Source of the DNA: Candidatus Omnitrophota bacterium
Lineage (GTDB): Bacteria; Omnitrophota; Omnitrophia; Omnitrophales; Aquincolibacteriaceae
Direction of reading: 5' to 3'
Assembly: GCA_035368605.1 (NCBI GenBank)
Contig: DAOSLF010000003.1
Location: forward strand, 64,889 to 128,888
Length of the DNA: 64,000 nt
This document shows positions 9,165 to 40,316 of this stretch, in pieces (position 1 is the first letter of the stretch; every line of letters begins with the position of its first letter). The notes below the pieces were generated by a model. That model saw only the letters and a program-made list of their open reading frames with translations. It ran no database searches and was not told the DNA's origin. Made by a program: the position numbers and the translations under genes.

Positions 9165-9296
9165 TTGCGTAAATTAACAGATTTCTTCCGAATTGCCAGC
9201 GATTTGTCAGGCTCCGGATTCCGTGGCGGCCGCGATCATCGTTCAATATCGCTTCATCCCGTCCGGTCTCGCTTCGTCATGTCGGTTTAGCGGATA

Positions 9297-18687: not shown

Positions 18688-19395
18688 ATGTTTCTTTTTC
18701 TGAAACTTGTTCTCGCGCACCTGATCGCGGATTTCGTCCTGCAGTTCGAGGAGCTTTACCAGCTGAAGGTCCGCCGTTTCATGGGGCACCTGCTCCATGT
18801 CCTGATTCATGCCGGCGTCACGGCTATTCTCCTTTTCCCTTATCTGAACGAGCCGGTCATCCTTCTTTTCATCGCGTTCCTGACGGGCGAGCATCTCCTG
18901 CAAGACCTGACAAAATACAGCCTGACCCAAAAATTCCCCGCGAAAAAATTCCTGTACTACATAGTCGACCAGATCAGCCACTTCGCCGTTCTTGCCCTGA
19001 TCTTCCTCGTTCCTTTCGCCAATGAAGCGAGGGCGCTGCCGGGTTCCCAGTCGCTGAACTTCCTGTATCGTTATCCGCCCATAACCGGGCTCTTTATCTT
19101 TTTCGTGTTGCTTACCTTCGCGGCCAACTACACCCTGAACTCTTTTTACGTGAGCTACGTGAAGGGCTGCCGCCCGTTCCACTGGATCACATCGCGTGAA
19201 ATGACCGTCGCGATCCTCGAGAGAACCGCGATCGCCGCGGCGGTGATCCTGGGCCGGTCCCCTTTCCTGGTCGCGCTTTCTCTCGCGGCAGGCCTGATCC
19301 GCCTTCCGTTCAAGGACCTGCGGTCCTGGAGGGATTTCCTCCTCAGCGCCGTCTACAGTCTCACACTCAGTTACGGATTCCTCGCATGCCTGTAA
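18688..19395 (+). CDS. DUF3307-family integral membrane protein
   Basis: N-terminus LKLVLAHLIADFVLQ is typical of DUF3307. The protein is polytopic. The long antisense ORF on the minus strand is judged spurious. Confidence 0.55.
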   Translation: MFLFLKLVLAHLIADFVLQFEELYQLKVRRFMGHLLHVLIHAGVTAILLFPYLNEPVILLFIAFLTGEHLLQDLTKYSLTQKFPAKKFLYYIVDQISHFAVLALIFLVPFANEARALPGSQSLNFLYRYPPITGLFIFFVLLTFAANYTLNSFYVSYVKGCRPFHWITSREMTVAILERTAIAAAVILGRSPFLVALSLAAGLIRLPFKDLRSWRDFLLSAVYSLTLSYGFLACL

Positions 19396-20708
19396 AGAAA
19401 ACTCCGAAAAAACCTCACCGCAGGAACAACCTGTCGAAAGAACCGAAAAGCTGCCCGGCAAACAAGGTCCGGAACCTTCAGAAGATTCTGGCCCTCAACA
19501 GCGTCCTCAACTCCACGCTCGAGCTGAATCAGCTTCTCACCGTCATCATGAGAACTTCCGCCGAGGTCATGCGCGCGGAAGCCGCTTCGCTCCTTCTTAT
19601 CGATGAAGGAACCGGCGAGCTTGTCTTCCGGGTGGCGCTTGGCGGCACGGGGTCCTCCCTTGAGGAAAAATTCCGCGTCAAAATGGGCGAAGGGATCGCC
19701 GGCACGGTCGCTAAAACCGGAAAACCTATCGTCGTCAATGACGCCCGAAACGATCCGCGTTTCGCGAAGCGTTTCGATAATTCCACGGGTTTTGTCACGA
19801 AGGCGATACTTTGCGTCCCCCTCAAGGCCAAGGACAAGGTCATCGGCGTCCTCCAGGCCATCAACCCCGTCGGCCGCAAAGGGTTCTGTCTGAGCGACCT
19901 CGACCTTTTCCAGACCTTCGCACACCAGGCTGCGGTCGCGGTCGAGAACGCGAAACTGCATGCCGAAATCGTCAAACAGGAGACGGCCAGGCAGGCCCTC
20001 AAGATCGCCCACGAAATCCAGCAGAATCTCCTTCCCGACCTGAAGAACCACCGTTACGGCACCGATCTTTTCGCGAAGTCCATTCCGGCATTCGATGTGG
20101 GAGGCGATTTCTACGACGTGGCAGTTCTCGATCATGGCAGGATCAGCGTGATCCTGGGCGATGTGTCGGGCAAGGGCGTACCGGCAGCGCTTTACATGGT
20201 ACGCGCGATGTCGGAATACCGGTTTCTCGCGCCACAGGCCAAAGACCCCGCGGAACTCCTGACCCAGCTCAACCGGAAACTCTCCGAGCAAAGCTTTCTC
20301 GGCATGTTCATCACAATGGTCTGTCTTATGATCGACCCGCACACGGGATCGGTCCAGTACTCGTCCGCGGGACACCTTCCGGTCCTCACCCGCCGCGCCG
20401 CGGACCGTTCCACCGAGCTCCTCAAGGGTCCCCAAAGCGTTCCGCTCGGACTCGCGCCGGACGCGCCGTTTTTTCTCAGCACCGTAAAACTTGAAAAACA
20501 CGACGCGCTTTTTCTTTACACGGACGGCATCACGGAAGCCAGGAACCGGAACGGAAAAGAATACACCGTCGAACGCCTCGCGGCCTGCGTCGCGGATCCC
20601 GCGCCCTCCGCCGAAGCCTATCTCGACAGGATCTGCGAGGACCTCAGCCGCTTCTCCAGCGGCGCCGAACAGCACGACGACATCACCGCCCTCGCGGTCA
20701 TACTCTAG
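19386..20708 (+). CDS. GAF-domain PP2C-type serine phosphatase (SpoIIE/RsbU family)
   Basis: GAF region (SLLLIDEGTGELVF ... GEGIAGTVAKTGKPIVVND) followed by PP2C/SpoIIE motifs DVGGDFYD ... ILGDVSGKGVPAAL ... LFLYTDGITEA ... DDITALAV. Confidence 0.85.
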   Translation: MPVKKTPKKPHRRNNLSKEPKSCPANKVRNLQKILALNSVLNSTLELNQLLTVIMRTSAEVMRAEAASLLLIDEGTGELVFRVALGGTGSSLEEKFRVKMGEGIAGTVAKTGKPIVVNDARNDPRFAKRFDNSTGFVTKAILCVPLKAKDKVIGVLQAINPVGRKGFCLSDLDLFQTFAHQAAVAVENAKLHAEIVKQETARQALKIAHEIQQNLLPDLKNHRYGTDLFAKSIPAFDVGGDFYDVAVLDHGRISVILGDVSGKGVPAALYMVRAMSEYRFLAPQAKDPAELLTQLNRKLSEQSFLGMFITMVCLMIDPHTGSVQYSSAGHLPVLTRRAADRSTELLKGPQSVPLGLAPDAPFFLSTVKLEKHDALFLYTDGITEARNRNGKEYTVERLAACVADPAPSAEAYLDRICEDLSRFSSGAEQHDDITALAVIL

Positions 20709-20758
20709 ACCGGCTGAAAAATCATTATTGACCGGTCAGCTGCGGAAAGTTCCTGTTT

Positions 20759-21874
20759 TTATCGGGAAAAGAACCGGGGTAAAACGAGGGTGAATTTCGT
20801 GCCGATGCCAGGCCTGCTTTCAACAGTGACCACCCCTCCGTGCATCTTGACGGTGCGGGAAACGACCATGAGGCCGAGACCGGTCCCGCGCTTCCCTTTC
20901 GTGGAGAAGAACGCCTCAAAAAGGCGCGCCCGGACCTCCTCCGGCATTCCGCACCCGTTATCCTCGACTGTGATCTCATAGGTTTCCGGGCCGGTCACGC
21001 GGGCACGGACCCTGATCCAGGCATCCGGTTTATCTTTAAAAGCCTCGAACGCGTTCTTGACAAGGTTCAGAAGCGCGCGATAAAGCGAGCGACCGTCCCC
21101 GCGGACGACCGGAAAATCCTTTTCAGCGGCACAATCAAGCTTTACGGAGAGCGCCCCCGCGCGTTCCGCGAGGTCCTCGCCCAACTCTTGTAGCAGGGCC
21201 GGGACATCCACATCTTCGGGTTCGAGCTGATAGTCTTTGCTGAGGCCGGCCACTTCCCAGATAAAACCGTCCATATCCTTCAGAGTCTTTTCGAGCTTCC
21301 CGAGGCCGGTCGCGATGAACTTCGGGTTCTTTTCATTAACGCCCATCCGGATCATTTCATCCGAAAATTTCGCGAGCTGGAGAATGTTCTTGATCTCATG
21401 GACCAGCATCGCCGTGGTCTGGCCGATCGCGGCAAGCCGTTCCATCTTGAGGTTTTCTTCGAAAAGAAGGATGTTTTTGAGCGCGCCGGAAAACTCCGAT
21501 GCCAGATTAAAACCGGTCTCCGTCTCCCGCGACGTGAACGCGGCGGCGCGCTCCAGACAGGCAAGTCCGACGGAGGCATTGCCGGCGATAAGGGGAAGGA
21601 AAAGAAGACCTTTTTCCGCGGAGGGTTTCCCGTCATCAAAAGCCGCCTGGGCAGCCCCTAGGAGAACCGCGGACGCTTCTTTGGGAGTAAAGGTCGCGCT
21701 TTCAAGCCACAGCTGTTTATCCGGGCCGGCCAGGAACAGATAGCCGCGCGAGGAAGGGACAAGCTGCAAAAGGGTCTGAAGAAAGAAATCGATCAGGATG
21801 CTTTTGTCCGTGATCGCGTCATAAATCCTGCCGATCTCGTGCGTGGCTTTGTCTGGATTACCGGAATGCGACAT
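20759..21874 (-). CDS. Sensor histidine kinase (GAF-like N-domain, HisKA, HATPase_c)
   Basis: H-box LAAIGQTTAMLVHEIKNIL and ATP-lid motifs DNGCGMPEE ... GTGLGLMVVSRTV. Confidence 0.8.
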   Translation of the reverse strand: MSHSGNPDKATHEIGRIYDAITDKSILIDFFLQTLLQLVPSSRGYLFLAGPDKQLWLESATFTPKEASAVLLGAAQAAFDDGKPSAEKGLLFLPLIAGNASVGLACLERAAAFTSRETETGFNLASEFSGALKNILLFEENLKMERLAAIGQTTAMLVHEIKNILQLAKFSDEMIRMGVNEKNPKFIATGLGKLEKTLKDMDGFIWEVAGLSKDYQLEPEDVDVPALLQELGEDLAERAGALSVKLDCAAEKDFPVVRGDGRSLYRALLNLVKNAFEAFKDKPDAWIRVRARVTGPETYEITVEDNGCGMPEEVRARLFEAFFSTKGKRGTGLGLMVVSRTVKMHGGVVTVESRPGIGTKFTLVLPRFFSR

Positions 21875-22025: not shown

Positions 22026-24032
22026 ATGAAAACAGCTATAATCCCTCCCATGCGGAAGATCATCCCCTATCTCATACCCGCCCTCGTCCTCACCGGCATT
22101 CTTTTCCTCCTTTATCAGTTCCCCGACCAGATCGAGGACTTCCGCATCATGGTCTTCGACAATTATCAACGCATCCGTCCCCGCATCTACAAGGACACTC
22201 CGGTCCGCATCATCGATATCGATGATAAAAGCCTCGAAAGGTTCGGTCAGTGGCCGTGGCCGCGCACGGTACTCGCCAAACTCGTCACGCGACTCTCTAA
22301 GGCCGGCGCTCAAACGATCGCCTTCGACGTCGTGTTCGCCGAACCCGATCGCACCTCACCGAAGAACGTGATCAGATCATGGCCTGACGTACCGGCCCTG
22401 CAGGCGGTGCGGTCCCAGATCGACGTGATGCCGGACCACGACCTGCTTTTCGCGGAAGCCGCGGACAAAGCCAGGGTCGTTTTCGCTTTCGGTCTGATCG
22501 CCGCGCCCGACAGGAACATCCCGGCCGTCAAATACGGTGGTTTCCTGGAACACGGTGCTCCGGGAGATCGGACCATTGATTATATCGGCCCCGCTTACAA
22601 GGGCGCGGTCACGAATATCCCCTCTCTCGAAAAAGCGGCCAGGGGCCTCGGCGGATTCAATATCAGCTCCGATGAAAAAGGGATGATCCGTCGCGCGCCC
22701 GCTCTCTTCCGTCTGAGGGACACGATCTATCCGTCGCTGTCGCTTGAGGCCATGCGGGTTTTTCAGGAGGTGAACGTGTTCAAGGTCTCGCTCGCAGGTA
22801 CGGAAACGAACGCCTCGTTCGGCGAGAAGACCGGCATCGTCTCCGTCAAAACGGGATTTCTCGACATCCCGACCGACAAACGCGGACGGATCTGGCTCTA
22901 TGACACGGGGCACCGCCCCGAGCGGTTCATCCCGGCCTGGAAGGTCTTCTCCGACGATTTTGATGCGGCATCCATCGATGGCAAGCTGCTCTTCGTCGGG
23001 ACGAGCGCGACCGGCCTGAAGGACATCCGCCCCACCCCGCTCAACACCTTCGCGCCCGGCGTCGAGGTCCACGCCCAGATCGCGGAGCAGATGTTCACGG
23101 GCGATTACCTGCGCCGTCCCGACTGGACCGAAGGCGCGGAATTCCTTTATATCTGCGTGCTCGGAATCCTCCTGATCGCGCTTCTCCCGAGCGTCGGCGC
23201 GGTATGGTGTGCTTTCCTCGGCGCCGCGGCGATCGGCTTCGCGGTATGGTATTCCTGGAAGCTGTACGTGGACGAAAACCTTTTAATCGACCCCCTCGTC
23301 CCTTCGCTTTCGATCCTCCTGATTTACCTCGTCTCCTCGTTCCTCAGGTTCCTCAAGACAGAGACCGAGCGGGGGCAGATCCGCGGTGCGTTCGCCCGTT
23401 ATCTTTCGCCCGAGCTCGTGACGCAGCTTGCGAAAAACCCGAAACAGCTGAAGCTGGGCGGCGAAACGCGTGAAATGACCTTTCTTTTTACCGATATCCG
23501 CGGATTCACCACGCTTGCGGAAGGGCTAAACGCGCAGGAGCTTACGGTCTTCATGAACTCCTTCATGACCCCCATGACGGAGATCATCCTCAAGCACAAG
23601 GGCACGATTGACAAATACATCGGGGACTGCATCATGGCGTTCTGGAACGCACCCCTCAGCGACGCGGATCACGCGAGGAACGCCTGTCACGCGGCGCTTG
23701 AAATGCGGGAATTCCTCTCGGTATTCAATGAGAGGCGGAAAAAGGAAGCGGAGGCACAGGGCAGACCCTTCCGCGAAATCAAGATCGGGATCGGGATCAA
23801 TACGGGCCTCGCGGCGGTCGGTAATATGGGTTCGGAATACCGGTTCGACTACACGGTCCTCGGAGATGAGGTGAACCTCGCATCGCGGCTGGAAGGTCTC
23901 ACGAAACAATATGAGACGACCATCATTATCGGCCCCAACACCGCGAACCGCATACCCGAACTCAAACCTCAGGAACTCGGGACCATACAAATCCGCGGCA
24001 TGACCGTTCCCAAACAGATCTTCAGCTTATAA
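22026..24032 (+). CDS. CHASE2-sensor class III adenylate/guanylate cyclase
   Basis: N-terminal TM, periplasmic CHASE2 region (RIIDIDDKSLERFGQWPWPR), a cluster of TM helices, and the cyclase core TFLFTDIRGFTTLAE ... GDCIMAFWNAP ... IGINTGLAAVGNMGS ... YTVLGDEVNLASRLE. The start was chosen at an internal Met and is uncertain (21966 or 22050 also possible). Confidence 0.85.
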   Translation: MKTAIIPPMRKIIPYLIPALVLTGILFLLYQFPDQIEDFRIMVFDNYQRIRPRIYKDTPVRIIDIDDKSLERFGQWPWPRTVLAKLVTRLSKAGAQTIAFDVVFAEPDRTSPKNVIRSWPDVPALQAVRSQIDVMPDHDLLFAEAADKARVVFAFGLIAAPDRNIPAVKYGGFLEHGAPGDRTIDYIGPAYKGAVTNIPSLEKAARGLGGFNISSDEKGMIRRAPALFRLRDTIYPSLSLEAMRVFQEVNVFKVSLAGTETNASFGEKTGIVSVKTGFLDIPTDKRGRIWLYDTGHRPERFIPAWKVFSDDFDAASIDGKLLFVGTSATGLKDIRPTPLNTFAPGVEVHAQIAEQMFTGDYLRRPDWTEGAEFLYICVLGILLIALLPSVGAVWCAFLGAAAIGFAVWYSWKLYVDENLLIDPLVPSLSILLIYLVSSFLRFLKTETERGQIRGAFARYLSPELVTQLAKNPKQLKLGGETREMTFLFTDIRGFTTLAEGLNAQELTVFMNSFMTPMTEIILKHKGTIDKYIGDCIMAFWNAPLSDADHARNACHAALEMREFLSVFNERRKKEAEAQGRPFREIKIGIGINTGLAAVGNMGSEYRFDYTVLGDEVNLASRLEGLTKQYETTIIIGPNTANRIPELKPQELGTIQIRGMTVPKQIFSL

Positions 24033-24081
24033 AAAACGGGGTCAGTCACCGTTTTAGAGAAATGGTGACTGACCCCGTTTT
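24033..24081. repeat. Palindromic repeat copy 1 (bidirectional terminator-like hairpin)
   Basis: AAAACGGGGTCAGTCACC-GTTTTAGAGAA-ATGGTGACTGACCCCGTTTTT: a 14-bp perfect stem flanked by an A-run and a T-run, sitting between convergent genes. Confidence 0.85.
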
Positions 24082-24082
24082 T

Positions 24083-25000
24083 CTAGCCGCCGGACGAGGA
24101 ATTTCCGCTGTCGCTGCCATCATCACTGCCGCGACCGGCGGCGGGCGCCCCCGGCATCACGGGCTGCGGCAATGACATCATCCCTCCCTGCGTCGCGCGG
24201 TGGCCGTATTCCTCCATTTGCGACATGAGCGACAACGTCCGGGTCATATCATCAATATCTTTAGCGGACGCCCCAAAGGTCGCAGCGTTTGGAACCGTCG
24301 CGGCATAACCGTTCGAGGAAAGATTCAGTTCGTCCATCAGCCCGTTCAGATCCGCTTCAGGAACCCGGAAAACGGGCGCCGGCGTGGTACCGGGGCCTTC
24401 AATAACGGTCCCAAAACCAATCTGCGAAATCTCCACGCCGGCCTGGGCCCCGCCTATATCATTGGACACAAAAATGCGGCCCGGCGGCGTCACGTCATCC
24501 CCCGCCGGCCCCAAAAGCACAACGAGAGAGCGGAACCCTTCCGATCTGCCCGCCACCACGGTCCCGCGGATACCGATACTTCCGGCGGGAAGGCCCACGG
24601 ACATGTTTTCCGGTTTCTTGTGTGCGATCTTCCCCGAAATAAACCGGAACACGCCCCGGAGGATATCCGTGTTCAGGATTCCGTCCTGGGTCACCGGATC
24701 ATAAGCGAAGTCATCGAGCCTGATCGCACTCGACGGACCGAGTGTAAAAACAGTTTCATCCATCAGCAAAATCTGGAGTCGCCCGTCATCTTTTGTCACC
24801 ACCTGTTCATCGAGAAATACGGGATCTCCGGCTTTCAGCTCTTTCACGGTGCCGTCCGGTGACACAGACTCCGCCGCACCGTGAACCACACCGACCACTC
24901 CGACCTGTATTTCCTGAGCCAGCACCGGGGGCATGGCAAACAGCGCCGTCAGGATAGCCACAAAAACAAAGATCTGTCCCCGTCGTTCAAGGTTTGTCAT
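24083..25000 (-). CDS. Secreted FecR-domain protein (paralogue 1) with Gly/Ser/Asp-rich C-terminal tail
   Basis: Signal peptide FVFVAILTALFAMPPVLAQE. FecR-like beta core VKELKAGDPVFLDEQVVTKDDGRLQILLMDETVFTLGPSSAIRLDDF. It is paralogous to the next gene, with long colinear identity (e.g. FRFISGKIA+KKPENMSV LPAG IGIRGT VAG). Confidence 0.7.
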   Translation of the reverse strand: MTNLERRGQIFVFVAILTALFAMPPVLAQEIQVGVVGVVHGAAESVSPDGTVKELKAGDPVFLDEQVVTKDDGRLQILLMDETVFTLGPSSAIRLDDFAYDPVTQDGILNTDILRGVFRFISGKIAHKKPENMSVGLPAGSIGIRGTVVAGRSEGFRSLVVLLGPAGDDVTPPGRIFVSNDIGGAQAGVEISQIGFGTVIEGPGTTPAPVFRVPEADLNGLMDELNLSSNGYAATVPNAATFGASAKDIDDMTRTLSLMSQMEEYGHRATQGGMMSLPQPVMPGAPAAGRGSDDGSDSGNSSSGG

Positions 25001-25096
25001 TTTTTCGCCTCTCGTATAAAAAGGCATGACCGGTTTTTCACCGGATTCGTCTTCGTGAATATTGCTCATTTGGGCCGGAACCTGGAACCAGTCTGA

Positions 25097-26029
25097 TTAT
25101 GGGGTGGTCCCGGAGCCGGTCGAATTACTACTCCCGCCGGAATACTCTTCGTGCGAAGCCGCCTGCTGTGCCGCATCATCGGCCGCGTCCTGTGCCGCGG
25201 TCCGGGACTGCTGATTCAGATAATCCAGTGCCGTCAGACCATTCATGATGGCATCAAGATCCGGTGTCTCTGAACCTGAAGGGACGTCGCCGGCCGTATC
25301 GCCTCCGAGCGTTTCCGCGGCACCATCCGACTGCCCGCCCCGGCCAACCTGCTGCCCAAGCGCGTTCGCAAGCTTCATGAGATCCTGTGGCGGCACGAGG
25401 AACGGGTCGAGCGGCGCCACATTCGGTCCCCCGATCACCGTCCCGAACCCGCTTTGGCTGATATTCACCCCGACCAGCTGGCCGTTCACCGTGTTACTCA
25501 CGTTAATCGCGCCGGAGCTCTGTCCGTTCGGTCCGCCGAGCAGAACGACCAGGGATTGCTGCCCCTGGCTTTGGCCCGCGACGAACGTCCCGCGAATCCC
25601 GATATGCCCCGCGGGGAGATCGACCGACATATTCTCGGGCTTTTTGCGGGCGATCTTCCCCGAGATGAAACGGAACGCCCCGGTCACGATATCGGCGTTC
25701 AGCTTCCCTTCGTCGGTCTTCGGGTCATAAACAAACTCGTCAAGCTTGATGCTTGAAGACGCACCGATCGTGAAAACGGTCTGATCGACAAGAAGGATCT
25801 GCATCCTTGAATCCGGGCTTGTCGTGACCGTGTCGCCCCGGAAGAGCGGATCTCCGCCTTTCAGCACACGCGTTTCACCGGCCGAAGTGGTCGCTTTCAC
25901 CTCCCCGGTAATCCCCGCCGCGACACCGATTTTCGCCGAAGTATCCGGCAAGGCCGCGACCAAGCTGCCGCAAATCAAAAACCCCGCCACGCACAAACAA
26001 GCCACCAGACTCCACGATTTGTTTTTCAT
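25097..26029 (-). CDS. Secreted FecR-domain protein (paralogue 2)
   Basis: Signal peptide SLVACLCVAGFLICGSLVAALP. FecR-like core VLKGGDPLFRGDTVTTSPDSRMQILLVDQTVFTIGASSSIKLDEF. The C-terminus is Ser/Gly-rich. Confidence 0.7.
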   Translation of the reverse strand: MKNKSWSLVACLCVAGFLICGSLVAALPDTSAKIGVAAGITGEVKATTSAGETRVLKGGDPLFRGDTVTTSPDSRMQILLVDQTVFTIGASSSIKLDEFVYDPKTDEGKLNADIVTGAFRFISGKIARKKPENMSVDLPAGHIGIRGTFVAGQSQGQQSLVVLLGGPNGQSSGAINVSNTVNGQLVGVNISQSGFGTVIGGPNVAPLDPFLVPPQDLMKLANALGQQVGRGGQSDGAAETLGGDTAGDVPSGSETPDLDAIMNGLTALDYLNQQSRTAAQDAADDAAQQAASHEEYSGGSSNSTGSGTTP

Positions 26030-26288
26030 TTTCCCCTCTCCTCAGCTTCAAAACTGAACCAACGTTGGATTAGCAAAGAAAACGGAACCCGCTTCGCGCA
26101 TAGTATAGCTGCGGGGGATTGTTTGAGATAGATGAAAATTCCGCAGGACAACGCTTCCTCTTCAAGCAACCGGAACAAGATCTGAAGAGTTCTCAATGTC
26201 AACCGTCAACGGCAACGGGAGGCTGCGGCGCTTGAGCTAATTGACGGCGCGCGGGAGACATCGGGGCGTAACCCCGATTCCGATCTCC

Positions 26289-27716
26289 CTAGAATTCCCA
26301 GCGCTTGGTGAACAGGCCTTCAATCTTGTTATTCGTGTAGGCGTAATTCGTGATGTTGGAGAGCGAGCGGTAATACTCGTAGGAAAGTGTGAACACAATA
26401 TCCTCCATCTGCCTGGGGAGGATCCTGGAGAGAAAAGCGGAAAGCGGGGTCCCAACCGTCACGCGGTAGCGGAATATCTTATCGTGACGGAAACGGCTCG
26501 CGACATCCGTTTCGGGTTCGTTATAACGGTCGAAATAAAGGTTCGCGGCATTGATCAGGAACGAACCCCGCCAGAGCGCCCACGTGTGGATCAGGTTCAT
26601 ATTGAACCGGTCGTAGCCATTGAACCCGGACTTGGCGTTCTTGTTCATATAGCCGATGCTCGGCGTGATCCGCATCGTCGCGACCGGCGCGTACGTGACA
26701 CCCCACAGGTAATCATATTCCGGGCCTTTGCGCTGCGCCCCGGTCGTGTTCTCCGAGACGCCGGAATAATTCTGGTACTCGTAACGGAAGTTCATGAAAC
26801 CGTTCAGTTTTCTCGTGAGCTGGCGATCGAACTGAAGGTTCAGCCCCAGCGTCCGGAGGTAGGTTTCGCGGGAAAGCAGGATATTGCTCGCGATAAAGGA
26901 CGGCGAAATATTAACCCACTTGGTCTTGTACCGCCCGCCGATCTCCCCCTGGTAGGTGCTGAGGTCGAGCGAATCGACCATAGTCTGTTCCTGCAGGAAA
27001 TACGTAAAAGACCCGAAAATCTCGTGGCCGGCCCGCATGCCGAGGTCGTGCGTGAAGTCCACGGTCGTAATGTTCGTGAAGTGCGTGTCGTCGCGCTTGC
27101 GGTTCGTGCCTTCGAGACCTTGTGCCACATCGTTCACGAGCTGGAACTTGGAGGAAGGCGCCGCGTTGCGGTTCGTGTCATAGCCCCAGCCCACGGTCTC
27201 CCGGAGACCGAAATGCGTCCGGCGCTTGCGGCGTTCGATACGTTTCCTGTATTCCCTGACCTGTTCCTCGATGTTCTTCGGAAGCGGCATGCCCTTCAGG
27301 GTCTCGAGCTCTTTTTGGGCCTCATTGAGGTTATCGAGACGATACAGCACGACGGCATAAAGGAGGCGGACGTCCGCGAGATTCGGATTGACGAGGAGGA
27401 TCCGCTCGAGGGTGGCGGCCGAGCCGAGGAGCTCGTTGTTGGCGATCTGTTGCTGAGCGAACCGGAAGTTCAGCGGAAGGTTATCGGGATCCTTGAGGAT
27501 ATCTTCATAGGTCACGCCGGTCCGGTATTTTTTCTCCTCTTCGAGCTTTCCGGATTTTTCAGCGACAGCGGCGGAATATTTTTCCGAACGGAGTTCCCGC
27601 TCGACAGCCTTGACCTCCTGCCCGACATCTTCGGCACGGGCCTGCGTGACGGGGAAAAGAAACGGGAGGACGGTGAAAAAAGCAATGAGGACCGGAGCGA
27701 ATCTGGAAGCGCGCAT
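26289..27716 (-). CDS. Outer-membrane beta-barrel protein with N-terminal TPR-like domain (Slam/DUF560-like architecture)
   Basis: Signal peptide VLIAFFTVLPFLFPVTQARAED, a TPR-like helical N-terminal third, then alternating amphipathic beta-strands. The protein ends in a C-terminal Phe (KRWEF), the beta-barrel signature. Confidence 0.55.
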   Translation of the reverse strand: MRASRFAPVLIAFFTVLPFLFPVTQARAEDVGQEVKAVERELRSEKYSAAVAEKSGKLEEEKKYRTGVTYEDILKDPDNLPLNFRFAQQQIANNELLGSAATLERILLVNPNLADVRLLYAVVLYRLDNLNEAQKELETLKGMPLPKNIEEQVREYRKRIERRKRRTHFGLRETVGWGYDTNRNAAPSSKFQLVNDVAQGLEGTNRKRDDTHFTNITTVDFTHDLGMRAGHEIFGSFTYFLQEQTMVDSLDLSTYQGEIGGRYKTKWVNISPSFIASNILLSRETYLRTLGLNLQFDRQLTRKLNGFMNFRYEYQNYSGVSENTTGAQRKGPEYDYLWGVTYAPVATMRITPSIGYMNKNAKSGFNGYDRFNMNLIHTWALWRGSFLINAANLYFDRYNEPETDVASRFRHDKIFRYRVTVGTPLSAFLSRILPRQMEDIVFTLSYEYYRSLSNITNYAYTNNKIEGLFTKRWEF

Positions 27717-27871
27717 GAGAGCCCTTTCTTTAACGGGTTCGGATTTGTGACAGTGTACTATAGGAACACCCTAAAAATCAAAAAGAGATTACCGCTTCCT
27801 TTTTTAGCGTCCGCTATCCGGAAAACCGCTCCAAATAACGGCTTTGTCGCTTTTGAAATCAAGATATACTA

Positions 27872-29827
27872 GTGCCCATGGAATTCCAGCTTGATCCTTT
27901 CCAGCAGCAAGCCGTTGAGTGGATTGAAAAAGACCACTCTCTCCTCATTTCGGCCCCGACCGGTTCCGGCAAGACCCTCATCGCGGAAAAGGCCGTCGAA
28001 AAGGCCTTCGCTCAGGGGAAGGGCGTTATCTACACGGCCCCGATCAAAGCCCTGAGTAATCAGAAGTTCCGCGATTTCCAGCAGAGGTTCGGCGCGGCCA
28101 ATGTCGGCATCCTGACCGGCGACGTCGCGATCAACGCGGGCGCCCGGCTGCTCATCATGACGACCGAGATTTACCGGAACTCCCTTTTCGAGAACAGTGA
28201 GCGCATCCGGAGTACGGGTTGGGTCATTTTCGACGAGGTCCATTACCTGGATGACCACGAGCGCGGGACGGTCTGGGAGGAGGCCCTTCTTTTCACGCCG
28301 CCTGAGATCAGGATTCTCGCGCTCAGCGCGACTATTCCGAACGTGCGGGAACTTGCATCGTGGATGCAGATCGTGCATGACCGGCCGGTTGCGGTGATCG
28401 AAGAAACAAAACGGCCGGTTCCGCTCCATTTCTTCTACCAATGCCAGGGGCATTTCTTCACGAACCTGAAATCGCTGCGCAAGGACGGCTACTATTCCCG
28501 CGATAACTGGGAACTTTCCGTGCGTGAGCGGCGGCGCGGGTTCAAACAAATGCGCGCGAAACCGAACCGCCTGAGTGAACTGCTCGATCACCTGATCCGC
28601 GAGGACCGCCTCCCCGCTATTTATTTTGCCTTCAGCCGGAAACGCACGGTCTACCTCGCCTGGGAGATCGCGCACTACGACCTGCTGAACAAGGCCGAGC
28701 GCGCGAAAGTCACGGAACTCTTCGACGAACTCTGCAAAAAATACGACCTCGCGGAAGAACGCTCCGCGCAGGACATGAAACCCCTGATCGAACACGGCAT
28801 CGCCTACCACCACGCGGGCATGCTTCCAACGCTCAAGGAAGTGGTCGAACGCCTTTTCACGAGCCGCCTGATCAAGCTGATCTTCACAACCGAAACCTTC
28901 GCGCTCGGAATCAATATGCCGGCGCGAACGGTCATCTTCGACGAACTTGAAAAATTCTACGGGACGGGCTTCAAGGCCCTCACGACCCGCGATTTCTACC
29001 AGATGGCGGGTCGCGCGGGGCGACGGGGCATGGACGCGAAAGGGTTCGTCTATTGCCGCATCCTGCCGCATGACATCCCCTTCCCGCAGGTCGAGCGCAT
29101 CATTTTCGGCCATCCCGAACCCGTCCGCAGCCAGTTCAACGCCGCTTACGCGACCGTTCTCAACCTCTACCGTGATTTCGGGGAGGATCTCCTTGATGTT
29201 TATCCGAGGTCCTTCCATTATTTCCAGTCCTCGCGGCGAATGCGCGATGACGGTTTCGACCTGATCCGCAGCAAGCTGAATCTGTTAAAAGAGCTGGGAT
29301 ACATCCGCGACGGGAAACTTTCGGAAAAGGGGGAATTCGCGTCCTCAATTTTCGGCTATGAACTGTTGCTCACGGAAATGTACCAGGACAAGGTCTTCGA
29401 GAGCTTCGACGAGGCGCGGCTCAACGTATTCCTCGCGGGCCTCGTGTTTGAGCCCCGTAAAGGGCTTGATGAGCCGCCCAGGCTTTCGCATCAAAACGAA
29501 CAACTGCTCAAGGTCACCCAGCAGTACCACCGGAACATCCACAAAAAGGAGCGGGCCCACCGGATCCGCCCTTACACGAAGCCGCCGCATTTCCATCTCG
29601 CGAAGGCGATCGAGGCGTGGACACGGGGGGAAGCGTTCGACAAGGTCATGCGGGACACTTCGGAGGATGAAGGAACGCTGGTCCGTTATTTCCGGATGGT
29701 GACCCAGCTCCTGCGCGAGATCGAGCACGCGCCTCACGCCCCGGAGGCACTCCGTCAGATGGCATTGAGGGCGCGCGGGACGATCGATCGCGACGTCGTC
29801 GACGCAGAAAAACAGCTCCGGGCCTAA
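27872..29827 (+). CDS. Ski2-like superfamily-2 DEAD/DEAH-box helicase
   Basis: Walker A APTGSGKT, DEVH box (VIFDEVHYL), SAT motif (LSATIPN), and motif VI QMAGRAGRRG. Confidence 0.8.
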   Translation: MPMEFQLDPFQQQAVEWIEKDHSLLISAPTGSGKTLIAEKAVEKAFAQGKGVIYTAPIKALSNQKFRDFQQRFGAANVGILTGDVAINAGARLLIMTTEIYRNSLFENSERIRSTGWVIFDEVHYLDDHERGTVWEEALLFTPPEIRILALSATIPNVRELASWMQIVHDRPVAVIEETKRPVPLHFFYQCQGHFFTNLKSLRKDGYYSRDNWELSVRERRRGFKQMRAKPNRLSELLDHLIREDRLPAIYFAFSRKRTVYLAWEIAHYDLLNKAERAKVTELFDELCKKYDLAEERSAQDMKPLIEHGIAYHHAGMLPTLKEVVERLFTSRLIKLIFTTETFALGINMPARTVIFDELEKFYGTGFKALTTRDFYQMAGRAGRRGMDAKGFVYCRILPHDIPFPQVERIIFGHPEPVRSQFNAAYATVLNLYRDFGEDLLDVYPRSFHYFQSSRRMRDDGFDLIRSKLNLLKELGYIRDGKLSEKGEFASSIFGYELLLTEMYQDKVFESFDEARLNVFLAGLVFEPRKGLDEPPRLSHQNEQLLKVTQQYHRNIHKKERAHRIRPYTKPPHFHLAKAIEAWTRGEAFDKVMRDTSEDEGTLVRYFRMVTQLLREIEHAPHAPEALRQMALRARGTIDRDVVDAEKQLRA

Positions 29828-29875
29828 AAACGGGGTCAGTCACCATTTCCCTAAAATGGTGACTGACCCCGTTTC
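29826..29875. repeat. Palindromic repeat copy 2
   Basis: AAAACGGGGTCAGTCACC-ATTTCCCTAAAA-TGGTGACTGACCCCGTTT, between the convergent helicase gene and addB. Confidence 0.85.
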
Positions 29876-32800
29876 TTGTCTTCCTCGAGAATCTCCTGCA
29901 AGATAACGGGCAGACGCCACTTTTCGATCCGGCAGAGGGCGGGATAAGGACAGAATTTTTCGCAGTCCCGCGGACGGACAAGAATCTTCAGGTCCTTGAT
30001 CTCCACCGTGAACCGTTTCACGAACTCGACGGTCCGCGCGAGGACATGGCGGAAATCCGCGTCTTCGAGAAGCGCCACCTTGCTTGAAATACCGAGACTG
30101 AATTTCCCGGCCGACTCCTTACGGTAAAATCCGCTCCGCGAACCTTCCTTCAACGAATAGAGCTCGCCGCCCACGGGTTCCAGCTTGAGAAGTTCTTCCA
30201 CCGCCAACACATAGAGCGGCAGTTGCAGCGAGGTGCCGATCGCGAGGGCCTCGCGGTCCAGTTTCGCCGTTCGCTTGTAATCCACGACCAGGCCCGCCTT
30301 CCCTTCCCCATCCGTGTCGATCCGATCGATTCGGCCCCGAATCCGGATTTCCTTTTCGCCGTCCCGGATCCGGAACGCCGGAGACCGGTAGTCCTTTCCC
30401 GTCCCGAAACCGTATTCGACATACGCCGGACGGAGTTGGCGGACCGAAAGTTTCTCGATCTCCTTTTCGAGGACCGAAAGGAGCATCTCCTTCACGTCGG
30501 CCCGGTCCAGATCCTCCCGGAATTTCTGTTCCGCCGTGAGGGGGTATCTCTGAAAAGCCTCTTTCAGTTTTTCCTCGACAAACTTTTCAGGCGCCGCGTG
30601 GTGATTTCCCGTCCGGATGAAGTCTCGGAAATATTCCTCGAGCACCCAATGCAGGATGTTCCCCTTCTGCCGGGAAGTAATGTCTTCCGTCGGGTCCTGG
30701 AGATTGAGGATGTGATGCGCGAAATAACGGTAAGGACATTTCGCGAATTCCTCGAGGCGGGTCGGGCTGGCCTCTCCGACATCAAAAAAACCGCCGTTCC
30801 GGATTCCGGGGTCCCCGATCACGGCCTCGATGGGGGTGATCGCCCGCAGGAGCTTGTCGAGAGGAACGCGCGCGGGCGGACCTTCCGCGGGAATCTTGCC
30901 GCCGGACTCAACGCGCTCGCGTAACTCTCCGAGAAAAGCGACCTCGCGTTCGCGGCCCGTGATCGCCTCCTCCGCCCCGGGATAGGGCCTCGCGAGCTTC
31001 TGCTTCACGACGGGGACCTTCCCGTCAAAAAGCCTCTGGACCTCCTCGAGATAAAAGGACCGGAGCGATTCCTTGCCTTCGAGGTCGATGTGAGGGTACG
31101 AGAAATAAAGGCGCTCGCTCGCCCGCGTCACGGCGAGGTAGAAAAGATATCGCTCAAGACTCTGCCGGGGCAGGCGTTCCTGCAACGGGTGTTCGAGCCC
31201 TGCGTTCATGATCGCGCGTTCCCAGTCCGAAAGAAGCGGATCCTCGCGAATCTGCACGGGAAAAACCCGCTCGAGCATCCCGGCCACGAAAACAACTCGG
31301 TATTCTTTTTGACGAGCAAGCGACACGTCGTAGATCTGGACCCGGTTCTTGTCGCGCTCGTGGAGTGAATACACATCGAGTTCGACAAGCCCGAGGAACT
31401 GATCGGCGAAGGAATCGAACAAAACGGCGTGCGCGCCGACTCTGGAGGCGTTCATCCGGATCTCTTCAAGCAGTGTCGTGAAACGCCGCGCGGCCGAGGC
31501 GTCGCTCCGCGTGAACGGCGTGTAATCGTCCGAGATTTCGAGGATGCCGAAGGTGTGGCCGACCGCGTGCGTGAGAAGACGGATATGATCGGCCGCGGTT
31601 TCCGCCGCGAGAAAAGCGGCCTCTAGCTCAAGCAGGACCCCGAGGAATTTGTCCTTGCCCGCCCCTCCGTTCTCCGCAAGCGCCGTCTCATTAACCCAGG
31701 GGGCTGTCCACGCTTCGCGGCCTTCGAGGACACCGTTCTCGAAGCTCCCCGCCTCGAATTTCGAGAGCCAGTCGTTGTCCCTCGCGAGATCGCCGAATTT
31801 CCGCACGTATCCGGATTTGACGAACGCGAGAACATCCTCCCGTCTCCAACCGTTCCGGAATATCGAAAGAAGCGCCGCCACCGCACCGATCCAGGGCGAG
31901 AGCTTGAGGCGGTCGCGTTCATGGACCTCGACCGGAATCCCGTAGCGTTCGAAGATCGGGGGAACAACCCGTCCGTAATCGCGGACCTGACGAAACAGCA
32001 CCGCGAAATCGCTGTAACGGTAGTTCCCCGACGCGTAAAGCCCGTGGATCTCGCGTGCGATCAGCTCGATCTCGCCTTCGATTCCGACTGCATCAAGAAA
32101 AGTGATCCCCTCCGGGGGTCTGGCTCCGTTGCGGTCCCCTGAAATGGTGCCTGACCCCGTTTTTATATTTTGGCCGAACAGATTCCGCTGAAGATGTAAA
32201 AGCGCCGGTTCCCTCGTCCGGTGACAAACGGGTTTCATCTTTTCCACCTTGAAACCGGCTTCCTCGAGCATCGCACGGGTGGAACGGATGGTCTCGAAAG
32301 CGTCCTCACGAACCGGGCCCTCTTCCGCCGTCAGTGTCACGATCATCTCATCCGACAGGGCGGCGAGTGCCCGGACATATTCGGCCTGGAGGTTGGAGAA
32401 ATCGAAAAAGCCATCGAGCCAGAGCGCTTTGAACCGGACCGGCGGCTGCCCGCCTTTGCGGGTCCGCTCCCGCCAGATCCGGAGCGTGTCCTGGAGATCC
32501 CTGAGACCGCGCTCCTTCAGCTCCGACTCATATCCTTCATAGACCGCGGCAAGCGCCTCGTATTTGGGGCCGAAGGCTGGTTCATATTTTTTGAGGGCGT
32601 TCATCCTCTCGCGGAATTCCGCGGGCGTCACGCAGGCTTCCTTGAGCTCCGAAATCCCGCCCAGGAGAAGTCCGACGAATCCCGGCAGGTCTTTCACGTC
32701 CCGAAAATATTCCCAGTCGTTCTTGCCGAGGAGATCGCGGACGATAATGGCCCGCGTAAGGCTTGAAACGACCGGAATCTCCGGGACCCGGAAGACATCG

Positions 32801-33021
32801 GTGATAAGGCGGGAAAGGGTCGTGACGCGTTTATGAAAAAAACCCGGAAGTCCCCGCTGGATGAGGAGTGAAACCACCCGTTCGGTGTGCTCGGCAGAGG
32901 GGACGATCAGGAAAGTGTCGGGCTCGAGCGGATTCGACGTCCGGAGGCTTTTTTCGAAGGCCTCCAGCAACGCGCGGGTCTTCCCGCATCCCGCCGGGCC
33001 GATCAGGAGAGTCTTCGTCAT
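29851..33021 (-). CDS. addB: AddB-type helicase-nuclease subunit B (inactive-helicase/PD-(D/E)XK nuclease, Fe-S)
   Basis: 1056 aa. N-terminal Walker A GPAGCGKT, C-terminal nuclease motif VVDYKRT, and a Cys cluster (CPYRYF ... CEKFCPYPALC) as in AddB Fe-S staples. Confidence 0.7.
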   Translation of the reverse strand: MTKTLLIGPAGCGKTRALLEAFEKSLRTSNPLEPDTFLIVPSAEHTERVVSLLIQRGLPGFFHKRVTTLSRLITDVFRVPEIPVVSSLTRAIIVRDLLGKNDWEYFRDVKDLPGFVGLLLGGISELKEACVTPAEFRERMNALKKYEPAFGPKYEALAAVYEGYESELKERGLRDLQDTLRIWRERTRKGGQPPVRFKALWLDGFFDFSNLQAEYVRALAALSDEMIVTLTAEEGPVREDAFETIRSTRAMLEEAGFKVEKMKPVCHRTREPALLHLQRNLFGQNIKTGSGTISGDRNGARPPEGITFLDAVGIEGEIELIAREIHGLYASGNYRYSDFAVLFRQVRDYGRVVPPIFERYGIPVEVHERDRLKLSPWIGAVAALLSIFRNGWRREDVLAFVKSGYVRKFGDLARDNDWLSKFEAGSFENGVLEGREAWTAPWVNETALAENGGAGKDKFLGVLLELEAAFLAAETAADHIRLLTHAVGHTFGILEISDDYTPFTRSDASAARRFTTLLEEIRMNASRVGAHAVLFDSFADQFLGLVELDVYSLHERDKNRVQIYDVSLARQKEYRVVFVAGMLERVFPVQIREDPLLSDWERAIMNAGLEHPLQERLPRQSLERYLFYLAVTRASERLYFSYPHIDLEGKESLRSFYLEEVQRLFDGKVPVVKQKLARPYPGAEEAITGREREVAFLGELRERVESGGKIPAEGPPARVPLDKLLRAITPIEAVIGDPGIRNGGFFDVGEASPTRLEEFAKCPYRYFAHHILNLQDPTEDITSRQKGNILHWVLEEYFRDFIRTGNHHAAPEKFVEEKLKEAFQRYPLTAEQKFREDLDRADVKEMLLSVLEKEIEKLSVRQLRPAYVEYGFGTGKDYRSPAFRIRDGEKEIRIRGRIDRIDTDGEGKAGLVVDYKRTAKLDREALAIGTSLQLPLYVLAVEELLKLEPVGGELYSLKEGSRSGFYRKESAGKFSLGISSKVALLEDADFRHVLARTVEFVKRFTVEIKDLKILVRPRDCEKFCPYPALCRIEKWRLPVILQEILEEDKKRGQSPF
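32111..32166. repeat. Diverged copy of the palindromic repeat, embedded in frame inside addB
   Basis: CGGGGGTCTGGCTCC-GTTGCGGTCCCCTGAAA-TGGTGCCTGACCCCGTTTT aligns to the intergenic repeat. The right arm has 1 mismatch; the left arm has 3 mismatches and 1 indel. It encodes the AddB segment NIKTGSGTISGDRNGARPPEG. Confidence 0.6.
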
Positions 33022-39771: not shown

Positions 39772-40316
39772 GAAAACTCACATCACAAAAAGGATTTAAT
39801 CTCATGGAAGCGATGCTCGCCGTGGCGCTGTCCAGCATTGTGGTTTTCGGAGTCTTTTTGCTTTTTCGGGTCGGCAGCGAACAATCTCAAATAAACCAGT
39901 CCCTCATGGATCTCAAAGACTCCTCTCGCGAAGCCATTTATAAAATGGTCCAGGAGATTCGCCAATCTGCTCCCGGTCACGTGATCATTGAAGCCAACGG
40001 TCAGTCAATCCGTTTTAAAATTCCTCATCCGGATCACTTGACAGGTCCTGGTTTTGACGTCGACTGGGATTCCGCACACACCATCACCTACGCTCTCGGC
40101 GGGGCTAACTCCCGGCAAATCATACGAACCGATACCACAACCGGGATGACCTCCATCATCGCCAACGATATCACGGCTCTGCGGTTCTCTGAAAATTCCT
40201 CGCCGTCCAGGATTGTGACGATAACTTTAAATGCCCAGAAAACGCCACCCGGCGGGCGAGCGGTTCCATCCACTCCCCTGCAAATAACGGCTCAAGCGGA
40301 TGTGAGAAACCCATGA
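39768..40316 (+). CDS. Type IV pilin-like minor pseudopilin (GspJ/PilW-like size)
   Basis: Leader MRKLTSQKG followed by FNLMEAMLAVALSSIVVFGV (E+5). Its start codon overlaps the previous stop (ATGA). Confidence 0.75.
   Translation: MRKLTSQKGFNLMEAMLAVALSSIVVFGVFLLFRVGSEQSQINQSLMDLKDSSREAIYKMVQEIRQSAPGHVIIEANGQSIRFKIPHPDHLTGPGFDVDWDSAHTITYALGGANSRQIIRTDTTTGMTSIIANDITALRFSENSSPSRIVTITLNAQKTPPGGRAVPSTPLQITAQADVRNP

Follow-up and report, generated by a model that had tools for sequence, protein, structure and literature searches.

The window analysed here is a stretch of 64,000 nucleotides from Candidatus Omnitrophota bacterium (contig DAOSLF010000003.1). The genes and features under study, together with the genes upstream of the cyclase, are as follows:

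18688-19395, plus strand: DUF3307 membrane protein (Pfam)
19386-20708, plus strand: GAF-SpoIIE/PP2C phosphatase (Pfam)
20759-21874, minus strand: histidine kinase, between the phosphatase gene and the cyclase gene
21966/22026-24032, plus strand: CHASE2-sensor class III adenylate cyclase of the inner membrane (Pfam, TM scan, catalytic motifs)
24036-24078, no strand: bidirectional intrinsic terminator hairpin (sequence, folding, terminator scan)
24083-25069, minus strand: FecR-domain protein 'a', short form, paralogue of 'b' (Pfam FecR, E 1.2e-7)
25097-26029, minus strand: FecR-domain protein 'b', 310 aa, short form (Pfam FecR, E 2.6e-10)
26289-27716, minus strand: outer-membrane protein (OMP), 475 aa (Pfam TPR_19, AlphaFold2 model)

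Counted from 22026 the cyclase has 668 aa; in the ORF list its reading frame is open from 21966. Pfam profiles detected a CHASE2 domain (E 5.5e-55) and a Guanylate_cyc domain (E 4.7e-21), and hydropathy placed TM regions at residues 10-35, 367-411 and 418-444, with approximately 330 aa of periplasmic sequence following the first. The order of the parts is TM1, periplasmic CHASE2, three TM segments and cytoplasmic cyclase domain. The catalytic domain is nearest to that of P. aeruginosa CyaB (3r5g, E 1e-35), and alignment to this protein showed that the motifs FTDIRGFT, IDKYIGD and EVNLASRLE are kept. The Pfam matches and the TM topology bear out the original prediction of a CHASE2 class III adenylate cyclase with a periplasmic sensor domain. 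The hairpin common to the convergent cyclase and FecR genes consists of a perfect 20-bp stem with an A-run and a T-run at its flanks; its folding energy is -41.4 kcal/mol (z -9.6), and none of 200 shuffled sequences was equally stable. The ORF list and the folding thus confirmed that the series OMP, FecR, FecR meets the cyclase gene tail-to-tail through a shared hairpin.

The two FecR proteins are 48% identical over 241 aa (E 4e-64). Protein 'a' has 328 aa counted from the first ATG; its true start is probably the ATG at 25000, giving 305 aa, because this codon is preceded by the Shine-Dalgarno-like AGAGG 9 nt upstream and yields a normal signal peptide. In protein 'b', alignment and hydropathy show a signal peptide, followed by a beta domain of the FecR/PupR type, a helix that is conserved and a tail rich in Gly, Ser and Asp. 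Both proteins contain a FecR-type periplasmic domain, and the last 40 residues of each are 50-55% G/S/D/N/T. The Pfam matches, the mutual identity and the tail composition agree with the earlier description of two paralogous secreted FecR proteins with Gly/Ser/Asp-rich tails. Their sole hydrophobic segment is of the N-terminal signal type, with the FecR domain beginning directly after it; neither a membrane anchor nor a cytoplasmic anti-sigma domain was found in them by hydropathy and alignment. The retention module of LapA/MpIBP-type RTX adhesins was considered as a class for these proteins and rejected: protein 'b' scored 31.1 bits against the NCBIfam LapA retention module NF033682 (cutoff 50), and the proteins of approximately 300 aa come with no RTX repeats, giant adhesin or T1SS. 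A genuine structural likeness to 5ix9 exists, but it is not enough to assign the proteins to this class.

The FecR matches in Pfam and the PupR fold seen in a homologue would fit conventional FecR anti-sigma signalling in which ECF sigma factor and TonB-dependent transducer are encoded elsewhere in the genome. The domain scan took in 44 of the 60 greedy-called window ORFs (at least 90 aa), the remaining 16 or so being located mainly towards the ends of the window, and among the 44 scanned neither an ECF sigma factor nor a TonB-dependent receptor was found, as had been predicted. In contrast to FecA-FecR-FecI and PupB-PupR-PupI, the window ORFs scanned lack both, the FecR proteins have a signal peptide only, and a CHASE2 cyclase or kinase would act as receiver; across phyla, too, the conserved neighbour is a CHASE2 sensor and not a sigma factor. 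Anti-sigma signalling is therefore largely refuted, and we give it hardly any credence. No cNMP-binding protein or CRP-type cAMP receptor and no phosphodiesterase was detected among the window ORFs scanned.

The OMP carries a signal peptide (cleavage between ..TQARA and EDV) and a periplasmic TPR domain at approximately residues 70-165, and it ends in ...KRWEF, with a terminal Phe. Its AlphaFold2 model (pLDDT 74) shows helices at 70-164 followed by 14 beta-strands, and the best TM-scores in the PDB were obtained with the 14-strand barrels CymA and OmpG. The OMP family comprises 378 clusters (50% identity) at E<=1e-30. SlipAM matches were found in 8 of 15 family members (best E 1.3e-8; 34 bits for P0230) and TPR_Slam matches in 3 of 15, whereas the window protein itself reached 16.6 bits against Pfam PF04575 (SlipAM; cutoff 22). 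Because of the matches of its relatives, the OMP is classed by sequence as a probable distant member of the Slam/T11SS (DUF560/SlipAM) superfamily. TPR, barrel and terminal Phe of the original prediction are thus supported by model and sequence, and the Slam/DUF560 likeness holds by way of the family, the protein's own match being sub-threshold.

Known Slam/T11SS loci share with the window the combination of TPR and 14-strand barrel, and their arrangement of a DUF560 OMP next to a cargo with a C-terminal 8-strand barrel recurs in most relatives, where the product of the downstream gene carries a C-terminal barrel of the fHbp/TbpB/hemophilin type. This Slam-cargo barrel on the FecR partner had been missed in the original prediction. 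The window differs in that its adjacent gene products have no 8-strand TbpB/fHbp-type barrel: the HMM for the C-terminal barrel gave zero matches in the window, and 'a' and 'b' are without it. Further differences are the N-terminal FecR/PupR domain and the CHASE2 partner, neither of which occurs in the T11SS cargo survey, and the phyla in which the module is found, which are mostly non-proteobacterial. The ancestral FecR partner of the OMP family is a long form with a Slam-cargo barrel, which was lost in the window copies. Since they lack the barrel of most relatives, the window copies may work unlike the ancestral long form.

To compare gene neighbourhoods, 80 loci were collected with the OMP profile, 72 of them with enough downstream DNA and 36 fully flanked. 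FecR genes lie immediately downstream of the OMP gene on the same strand in 65 of the 72 loci, and a CHASE2 cyclase gene is located within 10 kb in 31 of the 36 fully flanked loci; the other five have OMP and FecR with no CHASE2 gene in this range. The co-occurrence spans Omnitrophota, Elusimicrobia, Alphaproteobacteria, Myxococcota, Planctomycetia and Spirochaetales. In Omnitrophota the cyclase gene converges with the OMP/FecR genes, in Elusimicrobia it diverges from them, and in Alphaproteobacteria, Myxococcota and Spirochaetales it runs in the same direction. When the neighbours were clustered all-vs-all, only the OMP, FecR and CHASE2 cyclase families proved to be conserved across phyla; ECF sigma factors and TonB transducers are not conserved neighbours in the 80 OMP-anchored loci. 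Conserved co-occurrence in other genomes had been set beforehand as one of the points on which the prediction could fail, and it was found in at least six phyla and in three gene orders. OMP, FecR, FecR and CHASE2 cyclase are a real conserved module, and their linkage is not due to chance.

The genes for the DUF3307 protein and the GAF-PP2C phosphatase lie upstream of the cyclase gene and are co-directional with it. Among the loci compared, the order DUF3307, GAF-PP2C, (histidine kinase), cyclase recurs in 14, all of them from Omnitrophota. DUF3307 and GAF-PP2C are possibly lineage-specific accessory genes linked functionally with the cyclase, and the GAF domain of the phosphatase is a candidate cAMP receiver. 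A DSHCT helicase and an AddB-like nuclease are also syntenic neighbours within Omnitrophota. These two would be in keeping with an adjacency without functional meaning, inherited as synteny within the phylum. Outside Omnitrophota, however, only OMP, FecR and CHASE2 cyclase stay together, in rearranged orders, and proteins exist in which the parts are fused; mere synteny is contradicted by the cross-phylum data and is very improbable.

The closest precedent, and the one relative that has been studied by experiment, is found in S. meliloti. NsrA (1209 aa), encoded directly upstream of cyaK, contains a FecR domain (85-179, E 3e-15), TPR repeats (397-606) and a barrel, and PMC7529298 and PMC13001267, citing Garnerone 2018, describe both NsrA and CyaK as needed for signal-dependent activation of a cAMP reporter. 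The window resembles NsrA-CyaK (and CyaD1/CyaD2) in having an outer-membrane barrel gene next to a CHASE2 class III cyclase gene, with FecR and TPR in the periplasm. It differs in that NsrA is one polypeptide whereas the window has an OMP and two separate secreted FecR proteins, that the barrel of NsrA comprises approximately 600 aa in comparison to the 14-strand DUF560-like barrel of the window, and that no Clr-type regulator was found here. The OMP gave no tblastn match against plasmids including pSymB, and hhalign of the OMP profile with NsrA aligned only a TPR stretch (probability <1%). The likeness is architectural and not one of orthology, and the window module may, by analogy, be seen as a split-gene counterpart of NsrA-CyaK, in which FecR, TPR and barrel form a single protein.

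In Campylobacterota, a cluster of CHASE2 cyclase, FecR, TPR and phosphodiesterase was noted in a brief bioinformatic remark in 2022, whose authors proposed a single pathway and inter-phylum transfer (PMC9239204). The same three domain types are grouped there with a CHASE2 cyclase; the phosphodiesterase has no counterpart here, and a link to DUF560/T11SS or to a cargo barrel was not drawn in that work. The statement in the original prediction that this is not described as a defined system does not hold, as NsrA/CyaK and the Campylobacterota cluster (PMC9239204) are already published. The type of system is known, and the variant seen here is new.

Some FecR genes accompany CHASE2 sensors with no such OMP in the vicinity. 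With the cyclase as query, plasmid loci of three full-length CHASE2-cyclase homologues and of S. meliloti CyaK were found and examined; in all four a gene of the FecR subfamily adjoins the cyclase gene, and on the plasmids of Ensifer, Ruegeria and Rhizobium no DUF560-like OMP is encoded near these genes. The Burkholderia 'BiofilmReg' operon encodes a response regulator, a LysM-FecR protein and a CHASE2 histidine kinase (PMC5192318); it shares with the window the pairing of a secreted FecR-domain protein with a CHASE2 sensor and differs in its two-component output, in the LysM on the FecR protein and in that no TPR-barrel OMP is described. Locus L089 bridges the two, since a DUF560-like OMP and a long FecR protein are encoded there beside a CHASE2 histidine kinase; in its CHASE2 and TM region this kinase shares 42% identity with the window cyclase across 440 aa. 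The plasmid loci and the Burkholderia operon would suit a sensor consisting of FecR and CHASE2 only, with FecR as ligand or co-receptor and the OMP as a mere porin-like entry or scaffold. Against this, no other link in the data set is as tight as the adjacency of OMP and FecR, six Rhodospirillaceae loci keep the OMP gene directly followed by the cyclase gene with no FecR, NsrA is a fusion of FecR, TPR and barrel, P0230 and P0256 of the OMP family appear to be fusions of FecR, TPR and SlipAM, and NsrA is needed for signalling according to PMC7529298. An OMP without signalling role is thus quite improbable.

A further explanation reverses the direction: the OMP would be a working Slam/T11SS translocon, the FecR proteins its cargo or surface products, and the cyclase would control export via cAMP. 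The S. meliloti stand-alone FecR protein SMc02177 (encoded beside cyaD1) and the TPR protein SMb20495 are activated by cAMP/Clr and dispensable for plant-signal perception (PMC5498481), and therefore FecR and TPR proteins are able to act downstream of a cyclase. In the window, however, the OMP is intact although its FecR pair is without cargo barrel, and the nearest relatives, with OMPs 72-75% identical, are likewise without it. In the NsrA, P0230 and P0256 fusions, FecR is N-terminal to the periplasmic TPR and hence periplasmic. Inactivation of nsrA abolished signal perception (PMC7529298), and the linkage tracks CHASE2 whichever output, cyclase or kinase, is attached, as expected of an input. 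We consider control of export unlikely.

The original prediction that OMP and FecR work with the CHASE2 cyclase and not in a sigma/anti-sigma system is supported by the co-occurrence, the absence of ECF/TonB from the window ORFs scanned, the absence of an anti-sigma domain and membrane anchor from the FecR proteins, and the NsrA precedent. With slightly more belief than doubt we favour an envelope-spanning sensory module of three components with cAMP output, and we infer its contacts, signal direction, cue and effector as follows. The CHASE2 domain, facing the periplasm, would be the receiving end, the two secreted FecR proteins its periplasmic partners, and the OMP with TPR and 14-strand barrel would close the chain in the outer membrane. 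A cue located at the outer membrane or outside it would alter the grip of the OMP TPR domain on the FecR proteins, a contact made probably via the conserved helix and the Gly/Ser/Asp tail of the latter. Their FecR beta-domain would then bind or release the CHASE2 domain, the activity of the cyclase dimer would change, and cAMP would follow, possibly with the neighbouring GAF-PP2C phosphatase as downstream effector.

More tentatively, the module may represent a previously unrecognised form of cell-surface signalling, with a type 11 secretion pair as its basis. Of the long FecR protein, the DUF560-type barrel would export no more than the lipocalin-like barrel at the C-terminus, which would become a surface ligand-binding head, while the low-complexity linker would stay threaded in the barrel. 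The N-terminal domain, similar to FecR and the retention module, would be too folded to pass and would remain periplasmic, where the CHASE2 domain of the cyclase or kinase would learn from it about occupancy. The short paralogues of the window, ending inside the linker region, would be periplasmic barrel-plugging modulators derived from the long-form system. If so, signalling would proceed without TonB or an ECF sigma factor, and the FecR proteins would be the long-sought partner of CHASE2.

CHASE2 is the head domain of many cyclases, kinases and other sensors. What it senses has been unknown since the domain was defined (PMC5192318), and the data point to a partner protein that is secreted, has a FecR domain and is in most cases tethered to an OMP with TPR and barrel. 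The module joins Slam/T11SS secretion with cyclic-nucleotide and two-component signalling, fields without mutual citation. The Slam/T11SS cargo known so far consists of nutrient-capture and immune-evasion proteins. Alphaproteobacteria and Myxococcota that can be cultivated supply three-gene modules suited to cloning, in which the idea can be tested. The phylum Omnitrophota is uncultivated and has many members that are small-celled and possibly associated with hosts; for them the module marks a conserved path that could lead from surface events to cAMP.

The OMP gene, two FecR-domain genes and the convergent CHASE2 cyclase gene were all found in the ORF listing and by profile searches, as originally predicted:

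22026-24032 (alternatively from 21966), plus strand: CHASE2 class III cyclase (profile search, CHASE2 E 5.5e-55, cyclase domain E 4.7e-21)
24036-24078, between the convergent cyclase and FecR genes: perfect hairpin, dG -41.4 kcal/mol, z -9.6, with flanking A and T runs
24083-25069, minus strand: FecR-domain protein, paralogue of the following one (profile search), probable start at ATG 25000
25097-26029, minus strand: FecR-domain protein (profile search)
26289-27716, minus strand: OMP, 475 aa, with signal peptide, TPR matches and C-terminal Phe

The perfect hairpin corroborates the tail-to-tail arrangement of cyclase and FecR genes around a common palindrome and is a bidirectional terminator for both. 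Hydropathy analysis of the cyclase placed transmembrane segments at residues 10-35, 367-411 and 418-444, all before the catalytic domain, with some 330 periplasmic residues following the first of them. The catalytic domain is nearest to Pseudomonas aeruginosa CyaB (3r5g, E 1e-35), and the retention of the metal-binding, substrate and transition-state motifs predicts that the protein should be an active adenylate cyclase. The two FecR proteins are 48% identical over 241 aa (E 4e-64), each has a single hydrophobic segment, which is of the signal type, and G, S, D, N and T make up 50-55% of their last 40 residues. The probable start codon of the gene at 24083-25069 is the ATG at 25000, preceded by a Shine-Dalgarno-like AGAGG.

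A 543-aa ORF antisense to the OMP gene (26241-27872, plus strand) was rejected as a gene, being an ORF-calling artefact; in many loci of high GC content, OMP and cyclase genes have similar long shadow ORFs on the other strand ("family 6" of the clustering). Since greedy longest-ORF calling chose such antisense ORFs, it was replaced by HMM searches on six-frame translations. The regions 27872-33021 and 11585-14908 hold genes for DNA-processing enzymes: a DEAD/DSHCT helicase and an AddB-like nuclease, encoded in the flank of the OMP gene and keeping synteny with it in 17-22 Omnitrophota loci, and, at a distance of about 15 kb beyond the other side of the module, a UvrD plus PD-(D/E)XK (AddA-like) protein. 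Between 38000 and 41521 the GC content drops to 0.51, compared to about 0.57 elsewhere, and several ORFs without Pfam match are followed by a DUF7305/ice-binding-like adhesive-domain protein (40313-41521); this region may be a surface-structure island.

The OMP had been described as Slam/DUF560-like. Its AlphaFold2 model (pLDDT 74) contains TPR helices at residues 70-164 followed by 14 strands, and the best PDB TM-scores were obtained with the 14-strand barrels CymA and OmpG. In a Foldseek comparison with the PDB, the model matched generic barrels as well as BcsC and PelB, which are TPR-barrel exporters, and the best 50 matches included no Slam structure; the OMP profile had no match among PDB sequences. 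The Pfam family SlipAM (DUF560, Slam/T11SS family) is matched by 8 of 15 OMP family members (best E 1.3e-8) and TPR_Slam by 3 of the 15. The window OMP itself matches SlipAM only below threshold. The OMP barrel probably belongs to the Slam/T11SS superfamily, an assignment that is new as far as the literature searched shows.

Homologues of the OMP with 45-76% identity come nearly all from metagenome-assembled Candidatus Omnitrophota genomes. After alignment of 15 homologues (A1), 80 loci were fetched, one genome per species, from Omnitrophota, Elusimicrobia, Alphaproteobacteria (mostly Rhodospirillaceae), Myxococcota/Deltaproteobacteria, Planctomycetia and Spirochaetales, and neighbouring genes were detected by tblastn with the window proteins. 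Of the 72 loci in which 1.2 kb or more of sequence follows the OMP gene, 65 have one to four FecR genes immediately behind it in the same orientation, and a CHASE2 cyclase gene is found within 10 kb in 31 of 36 fully flanked loci. The gene order is convergent in Omnitrophota, as in the window, divergent with a gap of 100-870 bp in Elusimicrobia, and co-directional (OMP-FecR-cyclase) in Alphaproteobacteria, Myxococcota and the spirochaete. When the neighbouring ORFs were clustered all against all, only the OMP, FecR and CHASE2 cyclase families proved to be conserved beyond one phylum. As predicted, neither an ECF sigma factor nor a TonB-dependent receptor is encoded beside the module: none was detected among the 44 window ORFs scanned, nor was a cNMP-binding protein, and we regard classical anti-sigma signalling as very improbable. 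The genes co-occur across genomes and no such conventional partner of the FecR proteins was found among these ORFs, contrary to the two outcomes that would have refuted the original proposal. The linkage is more than chance, and the module is real and conserved; synteny by coincidence has next to no likelihood.

Six Rhodospirillaceae loci (L062, L063, L067, L069, L073 and L074) have the cyclase gene 84-92 bp after the OMP gene and no FecR gene; upstream, a divergent gene encodes a Pro/Ala-rich secreted protein of 720-950 aa instead. In cyclase-anchored plasmid loci from Ensifer, Ruegeria, Rhizobium and Sinorhizobium meliloti, a gene of the FecR subfamily adjoins the cyclase in all four, and a window-type OMP was present in none of these four. 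A sensor made up of FecR and CHASE2, with the OMP merely an entry pore or scaffold, is an unlikely reading of the module. The Ensifer plasmid locus (NZ_CP070354, L081) carries divergent genes for a small TPR protein and a FecR protein next to the CHASE2 cyclase, an MBL-fold hydrolase, possibly a phosphodiesterase, directly 3' of it, and an NHLP-type bacteriocin export system and a cNMP-binding protein in the vicinity. An alternative sensor was looked for in the five OMP and FecR loci without CHASE2 gene, and none was found; one of them (L077) encodes a CYTH-CHAD protein (8018-9640) divergent from the OMP gene. No CHASE2 genes adjoin those of the distant FecR homologues P0190, P0192 and P0193 (about 30% identity), one of which lies by the gene for a 2471-aa RTX protein, one amid transposases and one in an unrelated cluster, and the link is therefore specific to the window FecR subfamily, not to the whole Pfam domain. 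The RTX (HemolysinCabind) gene is divergent from that of P0192 (locus L084, 380-8810), a pairing of note since the start of the FecR domain is structurally similar to an RTX-adhesin retention module (5ix9).

Alignment of FecR homologues separated a short form of about 300 aa from a long form of 430-570 aa with an additional C-terminal domain of about 150 aa. Using HMMs derived from the alignment, 44 ORFs with both N-terminal and C-terminal domains were found, and the first gene 3' of the OMP gene encodes the long form in most loci of every phylum. Short forms are additional copies in Omnitrophota; both window proteins are short, and neither the window nor its two closest relatives (L001 and L002) has a long form. 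The window has a 260-bp gap between the OMP gene and the first FecR gene (26030-26288), in which a TTGACA-like element and, directly past the end of the OMP coding sequence, a small GC hairpin are found. Since a long-form gene occupies this position in most relatives, the gap may have been left by a deletion and may contain a secondary promoter.

The C-terminal domain had no Pfam family in ten long FecR proteins searched and was recognised by structure alone. In P0167, a long form modelled with AlphaFold2 (pLDDT 76), a confident N-terminal beta domain (residues 40-210) is followed by a low-complexity disordered stretch (241-307) containing a helix (277-299), and by an 8-strand barrel (326-460, pLDDT 82-90). 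This barrel resembles essentially all known Slam/T11SS cargo, with structural matches to fHbp (10.9), NHBA (9.2), TbpB (8.5), hemophilin (7.6), the haemophore Hpl (7.2), HpuA (7.1), LbpB (7.0) and PmSLP (6.5), and Foldseek agrees. T11SS cargo is defined by such a barrel together with a gene adjoining that of its OMP, in a survey that does not mention FecR, CHASE2 or cyclases (PMC12282271). The literature search found no paper treating DUF560 together with FecR. The ancestral FecR partner carries a T11SS cargo domain, which is likewise new within the literature searched.

In S. meliloti, the cAMP rise elicited by a proteinaceous external signal depends on NsrA, an outer-membrane protein, and on the CHASE2 cyclases CyaK and CyaD1/D2 (PMC7529298, PMC13001267). 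We derived the NsrA architecture from the SM11 sequence (pSymB-type replicon), in which the ORF immediately preceding the CHASE2 cyclase gene encodes 1209 aa and comprises FecR (residues 85-179, E 3e-15), TPR (397-606) and a C-terminal barrel, in agreement with the published barrel at residues 600-1200. NsrA unites in one chain the modules of the window's three genes; its barrel, however, has no detectable relation to the window OMP, and hhalign of the OMP profile with NsrA aligned a short TPR stretch and nothing more. The OMP is not an NsrA orthologue, as tblastn against 72,556 plasmids gave no OMP match. In the literature searched, NsrA was found together with FecR only in a 2022 mBio paper. 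According to a 2022 survey, the CHASE2 type accounts for most cyclases of Campylobacterota, their genes clustering with those for a phosphodiesterase and, as in the window, a FecR-domain protein and a TPR protein (PMC9239204). A Burkholderia operon (RR/LysM-FecR/CHASE2-histidine-kinase) likewise pairs a FecR protein with a CHASE2 sensor, here with histidine kinase output (PMC5192318). Given these precedents, the claim that such a system had not been described does not stand: it has been described, yet never defined as a family, and the general logic of the module, with published and experimentally supported precedent, is not categorically new.

A profile search of 1.84 billion representatives assigned 378 clusters to the OMP family (E<=1e-30). 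In P0230 (620 aa) and P0256 (588 aa), which belong to these clusters, TPR and SlipAM (34 bits in P0230) are preceded by an additional FecR-like domain at the N-terminus (Pfam E 1.2e-4 and 5e-4, slightly under threshold); their predicted architecture is that of NsrA on a DUF560-type barrel. The P0230 locus (L089) encodes, in order, an OmpR-type regulator, the OMP, a long FecR protein, a hybrid kinase and a convergent CHASE2 histidine kinase, whose CHASE2 and transmembrane region is 42% identical to that of the window cyclase over 440 aa. Thus, what the OMP/FecR pair tracks is CHASE2 as the sensor domain and not the cyclase as the output.

Further signalling genes are located near the cyclase:

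18688-21874, just upstream of the cyclase: DUF3307 membrane protein, GAF-SpoIIE (PP2C) phosphatase and histidine kinase
10172-11581, minus strand, about 10 kb from the cyclase: HAMP plus HD_5 (HD-GYP-type) protein, probably a cyclic-di-GMP phosphodiesterase

In 14 Omnitrophota loci, the window among them, the DUF3307 and GAF-PP2C genes lie a short way 5' of the cyclase gene and point in its direction, sometimes with a histidine kinase gene between GAF-PP2C gene and cyclase. Since GAF domains can bind cyclic nucleotides, the phosphatase is a candidate effector that would receive cAMP; this association, seen in one phylum only, could be plain synteny.

A trans-envelope relay is the most probable reading, held with slightly better than even confidence because of the cross-phylum linkage, the FecR-TPR-barrel fusions, the independence of output type and the NsrA genetics. 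The OMP would be its outer-membrane end, the FecR proteins would bridge the periplasm, and the CHASE2 domain would receive the signal and set cyclase activity. The fusions (NsrA, P0230 and P0256) put FecR at the periplasmic side of the TPR-barrel. In LapA/MpIBP adhesins, a retention module stalls the adhesin in its outer-membrane channel. The N-terminal domain of the long forms resembles such a module; together with their disordered linker and exportable cargo barrel, this suggests a tether threaded across the outer membrane. The window short forms terminate within the linker region of the long form and may be periplasmic modulators or barrel plugs; these readings of long and short forms are speculative.

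The main caveat to the relay comes from S. meliloti, where cAMP/Clr activates a TPR protein and the separately encoded FecR protein SMc02177, both of which are dispensable for perceiving the tested signal (PMC5498481). A T11SS-type display system under cAMP control, i.e., an output of the cyclase, therefore keeps a minor share of probability. The OMP/FecR pair tracks CHASE2 sensors of either output in at least six phyla, an association that is new as far as the searched literature goes.
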